Source: a virus
Taxonomy: Duplodnaviria > Heunggongvirae > Uroviricota > Caudoviricetes
Direction: 5' to 3' (one strand)
IMG/VR virus record: IMGVR_UViG_3300015214_000024
Coordinates: 391,148 to 455,147 of that record
DNA length: 64,000 nt
Shown: in pieces, positions 59,694-64,000 of the stretch
Position numbering within the stretch: the stretch's first letter is position 1
Layout of the letters: the number at the start of each line of letters is the position of its first letter
Made by a program: the position numbers and the translations under genes
The notes under the pieces: model-generated
The model's input: only the letters and a program-made list of their open reading frames with translations
What the model was told of the DNA's origin: nothing
Database searches by the model: none

Positions 59694-60005
59694 TTATTCA
59701 CTATAAAGCACCAATTGGTCCTGAATTATGATTATGGCAGCAGCTTGATCTGTGGTCAAATATGGCAATAAGACTTCCTGAGCTGAACACTTAGTATAGA
59801 ATGTAATTTGATCTTCTGGTGAAAGGTTTTCCCATATATGGACGATTCTACTCTGACGTTCCCATATAAGGTGTTTGACTTTATCATCATATTTCTTTTT
59901 TGTAATAACACCATTATGATATTCCTTATAGGCGCGATCGCACTTTTCATAATGATCTTCATATATGTACTTTACCGTGGTGGCAAATAATCGTTCTATG
60001 TCCAT
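59694..60005 (-). CDS. Paralogue family A protein
   Basis: WENLSPEDQITFY.KC...IIIIQDQLVLY. Confidence 0.75.
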   Translation of the reverse strand: MDIERLFATTVKYIYEDHYEKCDRAYKEYHNGVITKKKYDDKVKHLIWERQSRIVHIWENLSPEDQITFYTKCSAQEVLLPYLTTDQAAAIIIIQDQLVLYSE

Positions 60006-60261
60006 TATATACTTTTCCCGAAATCAATAGGGCATAAAAGAAATTTTTCGGTCTGATCGAAAAGCCCCGTGAAGTTAAGCATAATGGAGGGTTTTTTGTC
60101 GAGTAAGAAAGATACCGAAATCAATGGGTCTGAAAAGAAAACTGGTAGCCAGATGTCGGCCCCCCTTTATACTTTAGTCAACCCTGAAATTCACTACACG
60201 CACCACTTTTTTTTCGAAAAATATTTTTTTTCTTTTCGGTTGACTTATCTTTTTCAATCAG

Positions 60262-60339
60262 TTAGGAGAAAAGATTCAGGACGCCGACGAAGAACATCAC
60301 GGCGTGTTCGGGATAGAGAAAACTGAGCTTGATCTGCAC
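60262..60339 (-). CDS. Putative 25-aa peptide (not in the ORF track)
   Basis: TTGACT-16-TATAAC promoter, GAGGAG SD, GTG start; MQIKLSFLYPEHAVMFFVGVLNLFS. Confidence 0.45.
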   Translation of the reverse strand: MQIKLSFLYPEHAVMFFVGVLNLFS

Positions 60340-60412
60340 GTCTGTAACTCCTCTGTATGTGTCTGTTATATAGGATCCTGTCCTATAGTCAAGAGCTTTT
60401 ATTGTATTGACT

Positions 60413-60583
60413 CTATGCAGGAAAGGCCACTAGAGTCTCTACTCCCTGATAGCCCCTCTGCCAAAAGACTTGACGGGCCTTGGCTCGGGCTTCATCACCA
60501 TCACGGGCCTTGACTTTGGTCGTATTGGTGACCGTCTTATTGCGCTTGGTGAGCATACGGCAGGTAACAGTGAAGAGGATCAT
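60413..60583 (-). CDS. Small basic early-type protein (56 aa; not in the ORF track)
   Basis: TTGACT-16-TATGAT promoter, AAGGAG SD; MILFTVTCRMLTKRNKTV... Confidence 0.7.
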   Translation of the reverse strand: MILFTVTCRMLTKRNKTVTNTTKVKARDGDEARAKARQVFWQRGYQGVETLVAFPA

Positions 60584-60794
60584 TGTCTGTCTCCTTATGT
60601 GACCATCATATAGGAGAAAGATTATTAGTCAAGAGCCTTTTTGCTATAGACATTTGTTTGGGTCTACCATATAAGGAGTTATCAAGAGGAGATAGTCCAA
60701 TGCATTAGGCGATAGGCTCAGCATAGACAGGAACCATATAGTAAGAGAAAACATTAGGCTGTTGACATATAGGAGGCTACAGTGTAACAGTTAG

Positions 60795-61040
60795 GGCGTC
60801 GGGTCAGGAAGCCAGGACCCACATATTAGAGAGATGTATAGTTAGAGAAGACTATCAATACTGAGTTCAGGTTGGTGTTTGTAGTCGGGATTGGAAGGGT
60901 GGAGTCCGAAAGGATGTTGAAGCCCTCCTTTCTTTTATTCAGGCCTGTTAACTATCTTTGTTTACACTAATGAGTAATGTTAATGCCAATAGTTAACCAT
61001 TTCAGTCATAGGAATAGGCCGGGTTGACTACCGACCTTTT
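60795..61040 (+). ncRNA. Candidate structured ncRNA 1 with a kink-turn-like element
   Basis: No ORF; TTGACA at 60762; stems GGGTC/GACCC, ATAGT/ACTAT, GTAGTC/GACTAC, GGCCTGTT/AATAGGCC; GTGGAG-tcc-GAAA-gga-TGTTGAAGC at 60899-60923. Confidence 0.5.
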
Positions 61041-61045
61041 CTCCA

Positions 61046-61192
61046 TTATCCAATAATGATTTCGCCTTGGCTGTAATAGACTTCCTGAATGTCGTCAGTG
61101 TCGCCATATTCCGGGTCAACTATAGCCACATCCTGGTCGCCGTGTTGGTCGATCATTTGTTCCAGACGTGCGATCAGTTCGCTTGCCTTCAC
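61046..61192 (-). CDS. Small hypothetical protein (48 aa)
   Basis: GTG 61192 after AAGGAGG; MKASELIARLEQMIDQHGD. Confidence 0.7.
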   Translation of the reverse strand: MKASELIARLEQMIDQHGDQDVAIVDPEYGDTDDIQEVYYSQGEIIIG

Positions 61193-61202
61193 GTTTGCCT
61201 CC

Positions 61203-61439
61203 TTAGTATTCGAATCGAACACCGGCATTGACACCACGCCATTTGTCGTGGACTGGCCGGACATTCATCGCGCCCAGTGCTGCCAGTTCCTGCTGGAGTC
61301 GACCGAGATCGTAAGGCTTGTATTGCCCGTAAATCTTGTATGTGCGGCCGTGGACGATGCGCTGGGTGTAAAGCTTGTAGCAGTTGAGCCCCAGGTTATT
61401 GAGGGCTTGACGAGCGAGGATCGAACCGGGAAGTGCCAT
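61203..61439 (-). CDS. Small hypothetical early-type protein
   Basis: AGGAG SD; own promoter. Confidence 0.7.
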   Translation of the reverse strand: MALPGSILARQALNNLGLNCYKLYTQRIVHGRTYKIYGQYKPYDLGRLQQELAALGAMNVRPVHDKWRGVNAGVRFEY

Positions 61440-61456
61440 TACCTATCTCCTGTGTA

Positions 61457-61492
61457 TGTCAGTCGTATAGTGTATATTGGCCGACAATGCAA
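61457..61492 (-). promoter_or_regulatory. Early promoter (TTGCAT-17-TATACG) with an imperfect inverted repeat and 14-nt loop
   Basis: Plus strand: TGTCAGTC-14 nt-GGCCGACA. Confidence 0.55.
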
Positions 61493-61501
61493 GAGGTTTT
61501 T

Positions 61502-62167
61502 TCAGTAAGTTATCAGTTGACTCCTGAACTTCAGGCCATCATTGGTATATGTCCTGGGCAGTAGAGGATTTGGTGTGTTCAGTATATCGTCGATTTCGAT
61601 CGGCACGAATGATATCCGGACGAATGTCCTCTGAGTTCCTGTCGTGCTCGACGGGCGGCGATGTAGGATATAGGGGTCCATACAGTAGACAGTTTCGTCA
61701 TCTGCCTTCTGGACTTCTTCGACGAACTGTTCCAGATAATGGTTAATGTTGTGGACCCTGGGGTCGAAATCGTCTGGGAATGTCACATTCAGGTCGGCGA
61801 ATTCGGTCGCATCCGTGTTGGCCCAAATGTAATTCTGTTCGGGGTTGTGAGGTGTCTTGGTAGAGAAACCATCAACGTGCCATTCGTCGTCTCTCTTGCT
61901 CTTCACAATGCCGTGGCGAACGGTCACGTAACAGTAGGGATGATTGGCATTGATCGCCTTCTGATGCTCTTGGGCGAGCTTTATCAACGGCATTACCCAG
62001 TCGAGTTCGTCTGGGATTTGATAATCACCTGCTGACCGGATGACCATCCTGAGAATATATTGTTCATCAGTTGGTGGCGTGAGGTCAAGTCGACCAAGAC
62101 TCAAAGGACCGCCAGCTGTCTGGAAATCCTTCAAGTTAACCAATCTATGTGCCCGCTGGTCGAGCAT
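61502..62167 (-). CDS. Putative 2-oxoglutarate/Fe(II) oxygenase-fold protein
   Basis: WHVDG (HxD) ... ILHR ... RTFVRISF. Confidence 0.65.
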   Translation of the reverse strand: MLDQRAHRLVNLKDFQTAGGPLSLGRLDLTPPTDEQYILRMVIRSAGDYQIPDELDWVMPLIKLAQEHQKAINANHPYCYVTVRHGIVKSKRDDEWHVDGFSTKTPHNPEQNYIWANTDATEFADLNVTFPDDFDPRVHNINHYLEQFVEEVQKADDETVYCMDPYILHRRPSSTTGTQRTFVRISFVPIEIDDILNTPNPLLPRTYTNDGLKFRSQLITY

Positions 62168-62496
62168 TAGATCTCCTCAAACCCTAAGGGCATAACGAGC
62201 ATCTTTTTCGTGCCATTGACGACCACAATGTCGCCGACGCTCGTGCTGGTGTGTGCCGTATTGGGGATGGCCAAGCATTCGATACCAGCAGGCGGATAAC
62301 CGTTGCCACAATCGAAGGCAACGTCGAGATCGTCGCTCTGGATAACGTAGGCGGGCTGATAGTAGCCATCCAGCATTAGCCGGTTGAACATTTCCTGGCG
62401 CTCGGGCTGGCTGATGCGATTGGGCATCATTACGTTGATGGCGTCCTCGCCCTGAAGTTCCCGGCTGGTGTAGTGGAAGATGACCATCGAACCCAT
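62167..62496 (-). CDS. Hypothetical early-type protein
   Basis: DLD.AF...N...S.SVGDIVVV.G....V...GF; AAGGAG SD. Confidence 0.75.
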   Translation of the reverse strand: MGSMVIFHYTSRELQGEDAINVMMPNRISQPERQEMFNRLMLDGYYQPAYVIQSDDLDVAFDCGNGYPPAGIECLAIPNTAHTSTSVGDIVVVNGTKKMLVMPLGFEEI

Positions 62497-62516
62497 CGTG
62501 TGTCTCCTTGTGTTGT

Positions 62517-62551
62517 GCCACCCTTATATGGAAAATGGTGGCCACTGTCAA
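62517..62551 (-). promoter_or_regulatory. Early promoter (TTGACA-17-TATAAG) with inverted repeat and 14-nt loop
   Basis: GCCACC-14 nt-GGTGGC. Confidence 0.7.
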
Positions 62552-62560
62552 TGGAAAAAA

Positions 62561-62734
62561 TCAGTCTGGGTTGTATTCCCACCCGTATTTGATACGGTGT
62601 TCATCCAATTTCCGGGCGGCAGCTTTCCATTCTGGAGTGCGAACTGAACCAGTTTCCATATAGGCTTGGCCGCAAGCATCGTGAAGGGCGTCGCGTTCGT
62701 CTTGGATGTGCTGAGGCTGATCTTCGAAGCGCAT
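62561..62734 (-). CDS. Small hypothetical early-type protein (57 aa; not in the ORF track)
   Basis: AAGGAG SD; MRFEDQPQHIQDERDALHDACGQAY... Confidence 0.7.
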   Translation of the reverse strand: MRFEDQPQHIQDERDALHDACGQAYMETGSVRTPEWKAAARKLDEHRIKYGWEYNPD

Positions 62735-62747
62735 TAACCGTCTCCTT

Positions 62748-62786
62748 GTTACCAGACCCTCTTAGCAGAATCTGGTAACTGGTCAA
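62748..62786 (-). promoter_or_regulatory. Early promoter (TTGACC-16-TAAGAG) with 9-bp inverted repeat and 14-nt loop
   Basis: GTTACCAGA-14 nt-TCTGGTAAC. Confidence 0.7.
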
Positions 62787-62808
62787 GGATTATTTTCGGT
62801 TGACGGAG

Positions 62809-63111
62809 TTATTCTTCTCCGCCAAATCCTTCTTCACCTTCCGGCCATTCCAGCTGGGGCCAGTAGTAGATGCGAGCGCGCATCCCCATATCGTCTTCCC
62901 GGGGAGCATCCAGATCGAAGAGATCCATATTGCCGTTGTTCCGGTCAGCCAGGGCCAGGGCAAGTGTCCAGGCGGTGGTGTATTCCAGCACGACGCCAAT
63001 GCAGCTCTTGCCATACATACCACGGCCGCTGTAGCTGCGGACTTCCAGCTGGATGTTGCCATCTTCGTAGACTTCGCGGAGCAGGTTGAGAAACGATTCG
63101 GAAGTGACCAT
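62809..63111 (-). CDS. Hypothetical early-type protein
   Basis: RSYSGRGMYG.SC.G...DDMG....YYWP; AAGGAG SD. Confidence 0.8.
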   Translation of the reverse strand: MVTSESFLNLLREVYEDGNIQLEVRSYSGRGMYGKSCIGVVLEYTTAWTLALALADRNNGNMDLFDLDAPREDDMGMRARIYYWPQLEWPEGEEGFGGEE

Positions 63112-63124
63112 CTTGTGTCTCCTT

Positions 63125-63163
63125 GTTACCTGACTCTTGTAGCAGAATCAGGTAACTGGTCAA
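63125..63163 (-). promoter_or_regulatory. Early promoter (TTGACC-16-TACAAG) with 9-bp inverted repeat and 14-nt loop
   Basis: GTTACCTGA-14 nt-TCAGGTAAC; compensatory change relative to 62748-62779. Confidence 0.7.
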
Positions 63164-63172
63164 GAGAAATGT

Positions 63173-63559
63173 TTAGTTGACAATCACTTCCAAAGACGCC
63201 GCACTAGTTGCGTCAATGACGCCCTGTTCGATGGCTGCCTCGAGGATGATCTTGTCCATTATCGGATCGACTTTTGCAGCGATGCGATCGAAATGAGTGC
63301 GCTGGTGACGGCCGGAGCCGCTGCGATAGTGAGACATACGAACGCCGAAATGGTATCCAATCTCTGCCGCGCGGTTCATTCCGCCATTGTTGAAGATATC
63401 GTAGTAGGCATTGCCAGCCGTGCGAAGCTTTTCGAGCTTCTTGTTCTTGCTGCGCGAGTGTTGGCACTTGCCTTCGATTGGGATCAAGCCGTTCAGAGCA
63501 TCATAGAGCATCTGGTATTTGCCAGTGCCATCCCAGTAGCTGTTTCCTGATACGAGCAT
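63173..63559 (-). CDS. Hypothetical early-type protein
   Basis: YW...GKYQ...L..LIP..G...YYD.FNNG; AAGGAG SD; TTGACT promoter at 63607-63612. Confidence 0.8.
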   Translation of the reverse strand: MLVSGNSYWDGTGKYQMLYDALNGLIPIEGKCQHSRSKNKKLEKLRTAGNAYYDIFNNGGMNRAAEIGYHFGVRMSHYRSGSGRHQRTHFDRIAAKVDPIMDKIILEAAIEQGVIDATSAASLEVIVN

Positions 63560-63626
63560 CTTGCATCTCCTTCGTTACTCCATCTTTTTAGCAGATCTGG
63601 TCACAGAGTCAATGAGAAAAAAGCAG

Positions 63627-63655
63627 TTGACAGAACATTTTGTTGGGCGTATAAC
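63627..63655 (+). promoter_or_regulatory. Near-consensus sigma70 promoter
   Basis: TTGACA-17 nt-TATAAC with no downstream SD-led ORF. Confidence 0.75.
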
Positions 63656-63661
63656 GGCAGA

Positions 63662-63848
63662 GTTCAAGCAACACCGGGTCAGACGCTTAGCCGAAGCCGG
63701 TGCCAAGTTGGGCATTTTAGTAAGAACTGACTGAGTAGTGGAGCCAGAAATGGTCGATGAAGCGAAAGGCAGTATGGTTTGAGAGCGCCAGGAAGTGAAG
63801 GTTTCGCCCTGCGGATGGTTGCTTGGAAGGGGGCCTTGTGTCCCCTTC
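63662..63848 (+). ncRNA. Candidate structured ncRNA 2 with a kink-turn-like element
   Basis: Closing helix TTCAAGCAAC/GTTGCTTGGA; CACCGG/CCGGTG; GTGGAG-cca-GAAA-tgg-TCGATGAAGC (63738-63763); 3' hairpin GAAGGGG/CCCCTTC. Confidence 0.6.
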
Positions 63849-63974
63849 ACCCATCTTAGCCAACCACTGTTAACTTTACTAATTAACGTTAACACGACTC
63901 TGACCAGACTAATCTTTTTTTGTTGACTCATATCAAAGATATGTTATCAGGAGACAACAGAAGGAGATGTTGAG

Positions 63975-64000
63975 ATGGCCCGCAAGATCGAAACCGCCGC
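63975..64000 (+). CDS. Start of an early-type gene, partial (MARKIETA...)
   Basis: TTGACT promoter at 63923, AAGGAG SD, ATG 63975. Confidence 0.6.

Follow-up and report, generated by a model that had tools for sequence, protein, structure and literature searches.

Hairpins enclosing the -10 box of a repeated phage promoter cassette point to an RNA structure of read-through transcripts

Why would a phage enclose the -10 box of its promoters in an inverted repeat? This question is raised by a series of putative minus-strand promoters, P0 to P4, that lie close to the end of the IMG/VR virus record IMGVR_UViG_3300015214_000024. The window analysed here, 64,000 nucleotides long, is the terminal 64 kb of this metagenome-derived record of 455,147 bp. 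An earlier note on the window had assigned one layout to P1 to P4, in which a -35 box, an arm, exactly 14 nt holding the -10 box wholly or almost wholly, a complementary arm and a Shine-Dalgarno (SD) sequence follow one another, and had proposed either a DNA hairpin or cruciform loosely analogous to the N4 hairpin promoters or an RNA hairpin in read-through transcripts. The sequences and coordinates of the four sites are as given there. Our findings point to an RNA hairpin that is present only in read-through transcripts, rather than to an operator or a DNA hairpin of the N4 kind. Tentatively, and with somewhat less than even confidence, we envision that this hairpin insulates the downstream gene from such transcripts, mainly at the level of translation. 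The elements in question are listed below (positions are those of the window unless they are called genome positions).

63557 to 63612, minus strand: P0, a family-A copy of the cassette described below, heading the minus-strand gene array opposite a divergent promoter; no hairpin.
63109 to 63163, minus strand: P1 cassette, with the -35 box TTGACC at 63163-63158, TGn and the putative -10 box TACAAG at 63141-63136, the SD AGGAG at 63123-63119 and the ATG at 63111-63109.
63156 to 63125, minus strand: P1 hairpin as folded in sense RNA, 13 bp including G.U pairs, loop GCUACA; Watson-Crick arms 63156-63148 and 63133-63125; predicted own transcript start at about 63129-63130, within the 3' arm.
62732 to 62786, minus strand: P2 cassette, with the -35 box at 62786-62781, the putative -10 box TAAGAG at 62764-62759, the SD at 62746-62742 and the ATG at 62734-62732.
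62779 to 62748, minus strand: P2 hairpin; Watson-Crick arms 62779-62771 and 62756-62748; predicted transcript start at about 62752-62753.
62494 to 62551, minus strand: P3 cassette, a diverged family-A copy, with the -35 box TTGACA at 62551-62546, the putative -10 box TATAAG at 62528-62523, the SD at 62508-62504 and the ATG at 62496-62494.
62545 to 62515, minus strand: P3 hairpin, GUGgCCACC / GGUGGCAC, with one bulge; Watson-Crick arms 62542-62537 and 62522-62517; predicted transcript start near 62516.
61437 to 61492, minus strand: P4, with the -35 box TTGCAT at 61492-61487, the putative -10 box TATACG at 61469-61464, the SD at 61451-61447 and the ATG at 61439-61437.
61486 to 61457, minus strand: P4 imperfect repeat, arms 61486-61479 and 61464-61457; hairpin not above chance; predicted transcript start near 61457.

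Are these repeats real? Each site was folded as sense RNA and compared with 200 dinucleotide shuffles, scored by z and by the number of shuffles folding equally well. P1 (-21.2 kcal/mol, z -6.25) and P2 (-20.2 kcal/mol, z -5.63) are matched by none of their 200 shuffles. P3 is marginal (-11.6 kcal/mol, z -1.94, 10 of 200 shuffles as good; z -2.77 in the context-class folds presented below), P4 is at chance level (-4.9 kcal/mol, z -1.18, 24 of 200; z -1.33 in the read-through fold) and P0 shows no hairpin (-5.1 kcal/mol, z -0.02, 90 of 200; -3.4 kcal/mol in the context-class folds). The repeats thus exist, but just two of the four clearly beat chance. As for the fixed loop of 14 nt, it is found at all four sites as long as Watson-Crick pairs alone are counted, but its register relative to the -10 box varies (nucleotides before/after the hexamer: 6/2 in P1 and P2, 8/0 in P3, 9/-1 in P4), and once G.U pairs are admitted the P1 and P2 helix extends inward (AUUCU / AGAGU) to 13 bp, leaving a loop of 6 nt and drawing the final two bases of the -10 box into the stem.

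That the sites are promoters is itself a reading of their sequence. All four -10 hexamers end in G, and a standard sigma70 scan, which requires T at the last -10 position, calls none of them; we therefore infer their identity from other features, namely TTGACC or TTGACA spaced by 16-17 nt, TGn with TA, and the position and recurrence of the sites. The G ending is not peculiar to them. Most of the genome has about 37% G+C, and a block of about 75 kb, in which P0 to P4 lie, reaches 45-51%; G is the last base of roughly half of the candidate -10 boxes in this high-GC block (TAnnAG, in many cases TAAAAGG or TATAAGG). Such boxes commonly come with a 16-nt spacer and TGn, and those of the low-GC part are nearer to TATAAT. 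The G-ending boxes may represent a distinct promoter class, or they may be the price of keeping the stem.

P1, P2 and P3 are not independent but represent a single cassette of about 60 nt (-35, extended -10, hairpin, SD) that occurs 12 times in the genome, every copy residing in the high-GC block. Its consensus reads TTGACy, spacer, CCAGAUUCU, GCUAAA, AGGAUCUGG, UAACAAGGAGAC and start codon; the 12 aligned copies have a mean column identity of 59% over about 75 columns, and the covariance model R1 built on them retrieves from the genome exactly these 12 plus one weak match. P0 to P3 are consecutive direct repeats flanking single genes. Because P1 to P3 descend from one cassette, much of their shared geometry is common descent. 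Conceivably, then, the hairpins have no selected function: an ancestral cassette may have been palindromic and passed the repeat on, or intrastrand template switching may renew it, with decay in some copies. The paralogy of P1 to P3 and the chance-level fold of P4 are in keeping with this, as is the observation that fixed-register pairing across the copies extends to 68% of cells, with the outer stem missing in about half of the copies. More widely, inverted repeats enclosing the -10 box are in excess: among 36 promoter candidates in the high-GC block, 10 have one at p<0.05, where 1.8 would be expected.

If pairing matters, the two arms should belong together. The covariation score of the family is 0.265, against 0.185 in shuffles, and is matched by 2 of 500 shuffles. 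Because the copies pair in different registers, we also swapped halves between them: over the 12 copies, native 5' and 3' halves fold at a mean of -12.1 kcal/mol and swapped halves at -8.7 kcal/mol (permutation p=2e-4), and for P1, P3 and the copy at genome 32917 the best partner of each half is its own other half. Individual changes tell the same story. Between P2 and P1 there is one compensatory A.U to U.A change (A.T to T.A in the DNA), as the earlier note had seen; the 32917 copy has two more double changes, AUGCC / GGCAU replacing GUUACC / GGUAAC; and the P3 stem is entirely re-written relative to the other copies. Selection on arm pairing is thereby supported, and the earlier proposal that selection acts on structure and not on an operator sequence gains from the arm-swap result, from the compensatory changes and from the unrelated arms of different promoters. 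Co-variation in different registers is difficult to reconcile with hairpins that are merely inherited.

Is the structure formed by DNA or by RNA? A role at the DNA level could take the form of a cruciform or single-strand hairpin presenting the -10 box in its loop, as in N4, or of an operator at which a dimeric regulator would control early promoters. The repeat does cover the -10 box and the start site, which is the usual location of operators, the G-ending -10 box could mean non-standard recognition, and with DNA parameters P1 and P2 still fold above chance (about -10 and -9 kcal/mol; z -4.6). DNA hairpins of this stability with loops of 6-14 nt are, however, energetically poor candidates for cruciform extrusion. 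The folding is also stronger on the sense strand: -21.2 versus -16.3 kcal/mol on the antisense strand in P1, -20.2 versus -14.3 in P2, and a mean z of -1.70 versus -0.93 over 35 promoter candidates of the high-GC block (paired p=0.01). The inner stem of P1 and P2 owes its pairing to G.U, which works on the sense strand only, and the cassette family has 32 G.U cells versus 11 A.C cells, a bias that a functionless repeat would not be expected to have. Promoter candidates in the low-GC part of the genome have a mean z of about -0.6 on both strands, and promoter regions of Serratia phage BF, a distant relative, of about -0.9 on both strands; such mildly negative values elsewhere fit hairpins of no function.

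The early hairpin promoters of N4 have 5-7-bp stems and 3-nt loops, act in DNA, are used by a virion single-subunit polymerase and lack sigma70 hexamers. The sites described here have stems of 9-13 bp, loops of 6-14 nt and sigma70-type elements (TTGACC or TTGACA, and TGnTA), so that the likeness is limited to an inverted repeat at a phage early promoter. A single-subunit RNA polymerase (PF00940) had no match in the 455-kb record, though control genomes also went without a match, and no sigma factor was found in the genome. A dimeric repressor fits no better: the half-sites are not conserved, and arms that differ between promoters and change symmetrically, in compensating pairs, are incompatible with a single operator. 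Copies without a hairpin moreover retain all promoter elements. We therefore regard a DNA-level role, including the cruciform of the earlier note, as very improbable.

Three further candidates were tried and discarded. An intrinsic terminator on either strand was ruled out because the hairpin is followed by AACAAGGAGAC and no U-tract, and a terminator scan finds none here. T-runs ahead of the -35 box in copies lying close behind a gene cannot be terminator tails, given that no G+C-rich stem precedes them. An upstream alternative promoter, which would put the hairpin at the 5' end of the cassette's own transcript, lacks plausible hexamers.

What sets copies with a hairpin apart from those without is their upstream context. 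A copy was called tight if its -35 box lies no more than 22 nt past the stop codon of a co-oriented, SD-led gene without a terminator, and insulated if it opens a divergent unit, or if a terminator-like hairpin with a T-run or a gap of 30-87 nt precedes it. The comparison draws in part on a 2.2-kb contig, L210, which was the one useful match of a degenerate cassette motif, a 25-mer, among genome contigs; this motif had no match among metagenome contigs, an exact cassette 15-mer gave chance matches only in IMG/VR, and the covariance model R1 had none in five related phage records of 357-395 kb or in 100 loci where distant relatives of the P1 gene occur. L210 is clearly related to the high-GC block, with which it shares cassettes, a palindrome and homologues of two block genes. 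It may be a mis-binned phage fragment, or else a weak hint at a marine verrucomicrobial host.

Tight class, n=7: P1, P2, P3 and genome 9797, 14136, 19770 and 32917; folds of -11.3 to -19.3 kcal/mol, z -2.8 to -6.9.
Insulated class, n=7: P0, genome 2394, 9205, 11445 and 12110, and C1 and C3 of L210; folds of -3.4 to -9.5 kcal/mol, z +0.2 to -2.4.
L210, JAKVCM010000223.1, positions 1-2219: contig binned in a Puniceicoccaceae metagenome-assembled genome from Station ALOHA.
C1 of L210: first after a divergent gene; no hairpin, z +0.3.
C2 of L210: 9 nt behind a co-oriented gene; 16-bp G.U-rich hairpin, sense -22.1 and antisense -12.9 kcal/mol, z -4.9.
C3 of L210: behind a terminator; no significant hairpin, z -0.2.
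C4 of L210: behind an intergenic stretch of about 140 nt; the spacer anti-SD CCUCCUUCU pairs with the SD, z -3.4.

The two classes, which follow a stated rule but were assigned after the folds had been seen, are perfectly separated by hairpin strength (exact Mann-Whitney p=0.0006; p=0.013 with the ambiguous copy 12110 counted as tight). Insulated family-A copies keep every promoter element and lack the hairpin. A similar trend extends to 72 promoter candidates genome-wide, with a mean z of -2.04 in tight and -0.49 in other positions (p=0.002) and with z below -2 in 53% of tight promoters versus 12% of the others. C2 and the genome 9797 copy precede homologous genes, yet the arms of their two hairpins show no relationship in sequence; the 3' arm of P4 (CUGACAU) resembles that of C2, so P4 may be a decayed copy of a C2-type cassette. 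A hairpin whose strength depends on upstream context argues for a role in read-through RNA, because a role intrinsic to the promoter DNA would show no such dependence. It also makes the absence of any selected function unlikely: decay is not random but tracks read-through context, perfectly in the family and as a trend genome-wide, and a homologous gene on L210 has a hairpin with unrelated arms.

How might the hairpin act? The 5' arm lies in the spacer between the -35 and -10 boxes, and the start predicted at 7 nt after the hexamer would fall in the 3' arm. With such a start, RNA made from the cassette's own promoter would lack the 5' arm and carry an open, short leader (GGUAACAAGGAGAC...). 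RNA arriving from the upstream gene would hold both arms and could form a hairpin of 10-13 bp ending 2-3 nt before the SD, and in some copies the lower helix would continue onto the SD or AUG. The own transcripts are predicted to be free of structure (-1.4 to -4.5 kcal/mol, z -0.4 to +1.0; -2.8 kcal/mol for P1), and the read-through forms of P1 to P3 fold at -19 to -26 kcal/mol (-25.6 for P1), the lower helix reaching the AUG in P1 and the SD of P3 pairing with the flank of the -35 box. Thirteen cassettes were folded in read-through form: in 8 of them no more than 17% of the SD is unpaired, and in 10 the SD is paired to a greater extent than the mean obtained with shuffled flanks. We envision a scenario whereby the hairpin neutralises read-through transcripts, chiefly by damping translation of the downstream gene, and whereby each small gene would then be expressed from its own promoter. 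The hairpin might in this way substitute for the upstream terminator that is found at other copies of the same cassette. Hairpins abutting an SD can indeed reduce translation by limiting the standby site (PMC3936740).

Several observations weigh against such insulation. The G-ending -10 hexamers leave the promoters themselves putative. The main helix of P1 and P2 leaves 2-3 nt free ahead of the SD, occlusion of SD or AUG by the lower helix is not significant over the family (Fisher p=0.09), and over all promoters the accessibility of the SD in read-through RNA is no different from that with shuffled upstream sequence (0.40 vs 0.43), which led us to reject SD occlusion as a general property of promoters here. 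Under the standby-site model (PMC3936740), ribosomes could still be loaded if the RNA ahead of the hairpin offers a long single-stranded stretch. Finally, the copies are paralogues of one another, and membership in the tight or insulated class goes partly with subfamily, although the contrast persists within the largest subfamily (6 tight versus 2 insulated copies).

Alternatively, the same read-through hairpin may act on RNA ends, as an RNase III-type processing site or as a 3'-protective hairpin left after cleavage in the AACAAGGAG linker. The genes on either side of it are closely spaced and probably share a polycistronic early RNA, and its main helix leaves out the SD; in P1 and P2 it consists of 13 bp, an internal loop and a short lower helix; and it is present exactly where the upstream message has no terminator hairpin, a distribution that suits a 3'-end role no less than insulation. 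Hairpins processed by RNase III between the T7 early genes offer a parallel. Like them, the cassette hairpins would lie between adjacent genes of an early transcript made by host polymerase, immediately upstream of the next ribosome-binding site (RBS); the T7 sites are longer (about 20 bp, with an internal loop) and do not coincide with promoters, and cleavage at the cassettes is hypothetical. A search for RegB was uninformative, its control also being without a match, and no other search for RNase III-like or RegB-like enzymes was made. Since 10-13 bp is short for RNase III, and since many other promoters hold the SD itself in the 3' arm, which points to translation, we consider a role in RNA ends rather unlikely, if far from negligible. 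Of the RNA-based proposals in the earlier note, the hairpin in read-through transcripts is therefore supported by its context dependence and processing is possible, whereas termination is unlikely in view of the missing U-tract.

Promoters that sequester the SD are numerous both here and on L210: their spacer carries an anti-SD (CUCC) that pairs with the SD of the gene they drive, as at window 60632 and at genome 16935, 10762, 5107, 313618, 189088, 258663 and 21776. The window example is laid out as follows.

60581 to 60632, minus strand: promoter in the layout of T4 gene e, with TTGACT at 60632-60627 and the ATG at 60583-60581; the anti-SD UCUCCU at 60617-60612 in the spacer pairs with the SD AGGAGA at 60595-60590 (z -3.68).

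Another promoter-like sequence on the minus strand, TTGACT-ATAGGACAGGATCC-TATATA at window 60392 (genome 451539), has a 7-bp repeat, TATAGGA / TCCTATA, whose 3' arm overlaps the -10 box and whose whole hairpin would lie upstream of the start.

In the window, the cassettes serve a minus-strand array of small genes.

61203 to 63559, minus strand: array of six small genes.
63173 to 63559, minus strand: gene of 128 aa.
62809 to 63111, minus strand: gene of 100 aa.
62561 to 62734, minus strand: gene of 57 aa.
62167 to 62496, minus strand: gene of 109 aa.
61502 to 62167, minus strand: gene of 221 aa.
61203 to 61439, minus strand: gene of 78 aa.

Within this array the next -35 box begins 9-22 nt after each stop codon, and the terminator scan finds no terminator-like site between the genes on the minus strand. 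Pfam identifies no domain in the six genes, two of which belong to PHROG families of unknown function, and Rfam has no family match across window 60000-64000. Proteins encoded downstream of cassettes have no similarity to one another. The 221-aa gene has distant relatives only (at most 56% identity), and the protein of the P1 gene has homologues at 75-97% identity in Logan, ENA and JGI.

The high-GC block crosses the record ends, running from about window 60300 to the end and from genome 1 to about 70,500. Its open reading frames (ORFs) were taken as SD-led ORFs, a greedy longest-ORF map having been dropped as unreliable because of spurious antisense ORFs. Besides many small ORFans it contains two RNA ligases, a phosphoesterase (metallophosphatase) and a MoxR-type ATPase that has a VWA partner, and by this content, rich in small ORFans, it looks like an accessory, 'hyperplastic' region. 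Its contrast with the remainder of the phage could stem from an acquired module, a different selective regime or an assembly chimera. A kinase-like gene begins at window 63975, with its promoter region from 63923, and runs past the record end; its L210 homologue, for which no relatives were found in IMG/VR, aligns from residue 24 with genome 25-564. The record ends are therefore contiguous, as in a circular or permuted genome, despite the IMG/VR label 'linear'. Between the divergent promoters P0 and plus-strand 63923 lies a 27-nt imperfect palindrome, TGTTAACTTTACTAATTAACGTTAACA (window 63868-63894). It recurs unchanged at genome 61246 and in variant form near genome 669, 4124 and 72130 (the last at the edge of the high-GC block), and L210 carries three copies. 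The palindrome is a candidate for a regulator site or for a boundary element serving both directions.

How does the cassette relate to known systems? Its closest counterparts in organisation are the PeSL (promoter-early stem-loop) cassettes of T4-like phages (Arbiol et al., 2010, PMC2839356; Comeau et al., 2014, PMC4122927). Both are composite motifs of an A/T-rich upstream stretch, sigma70-like -35 and -10 boxes (the latter G-ending here), SD and start codon; both are repeated before unrelated small ORFans in a hyperplastic accessory region, often as direct repeats flanking single genes; and in both a stem-loop belongs to the motif. The PeSL stem-loop, however, is a working terminator just upstream of the promoter (PMC2839356, PMC4122927), whereas seven copies here have the stem-loop inside the promoter, enclosing the -10 box and start, followed by AACAAGGAG and lacking a U-tract. 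The proper PeSL layout, terminator then promoter, is seen only at genome 9205, genome 11445 and C3 of L210. The strong terminator before copy 9205 (genome 9165-9204), GGGGTCAGGTAACTGGCCCC plus a T-run, includes a 10-mer, GTCAGGTAAC, identical to the P1 3' arm, which may be a remnant of recombination between cassettes.

The logic of a promoter within a hairpin has precedents of its own. In T4, gene e, soc, gene 49 and I-TevI have a promoter embedded in an RBS-sequestering hairpin (reviewed in PMC3014915). There, as predicted here, the promoter lies in the DNA encoding the 5' strand, and RNA initiated upstream folds where local RNA cannot; the SD is in the 3' strand also at window 60632, genome 16935, 10762, 5107 and 313618 and C4 of L210. 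The T4 embedded promoters are late or middle promoters that delay a few genes and include the SD in the helix, whereas those described here are sigma70-like and serial in an early-looking array, with the helix of the cassette family stopping 2-3 nt short of the SD. In IS10, an upstream segment of incoming transcripts reportedly folds onto the translation start and is absent from transcripts of the element's own promoter, and occlusion of the RBS is said to have been demonstrated by experiment. IS10 thus resembles the cassette as a self-insulating design for a mobile module; it differs as a single-gene transposon without any sequence relation to the cassettes. Protection of IS10/Tn10 from external promoters goes back to Davis, Simons and Kleckner (1985, PMID 2416461; cited in PMC13181058).

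The cassette is best filed as a combination of PeSL-like cassettes with the promoter-in-hairpin logic of T4 and IS10; it is a new arrangement of known phage tricks and not a new kind of promoter, and our findings lend no support to a new mode of promoter recognition. A more far-reaching possibility, which we regard as doubtful, is that a cassette of about 60 nt combines promoter, RBS and a promoter-embedded RNA insulator into a compact self-insulating module, which replaces intergenic terminators between genes lying end to end and whose arms are free to diverge. Such a module would allow PeSL-style shuffling of dozens of ORFans without expression from their neighbours, and would explain the G-ending -10 box as a cost of the stem. 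If insulation by read-through hairpins proves true, a very large phage would keep its packed accessory genes individually controlled without space for terminators, and a link would be made between mobile promoter cassettes (PeSLs) and the placing of promoters inside inhibitory RNA hairpins (T4 e/soc, IS10), two ideas that have been treated apart until now. For the annotation of phage early regions a rule would follow, namely to look for a strong sense-strand hairpin across the -10 box exactly where read-through is possible, and the cassette might offer a natural template for compact genetic insulators.

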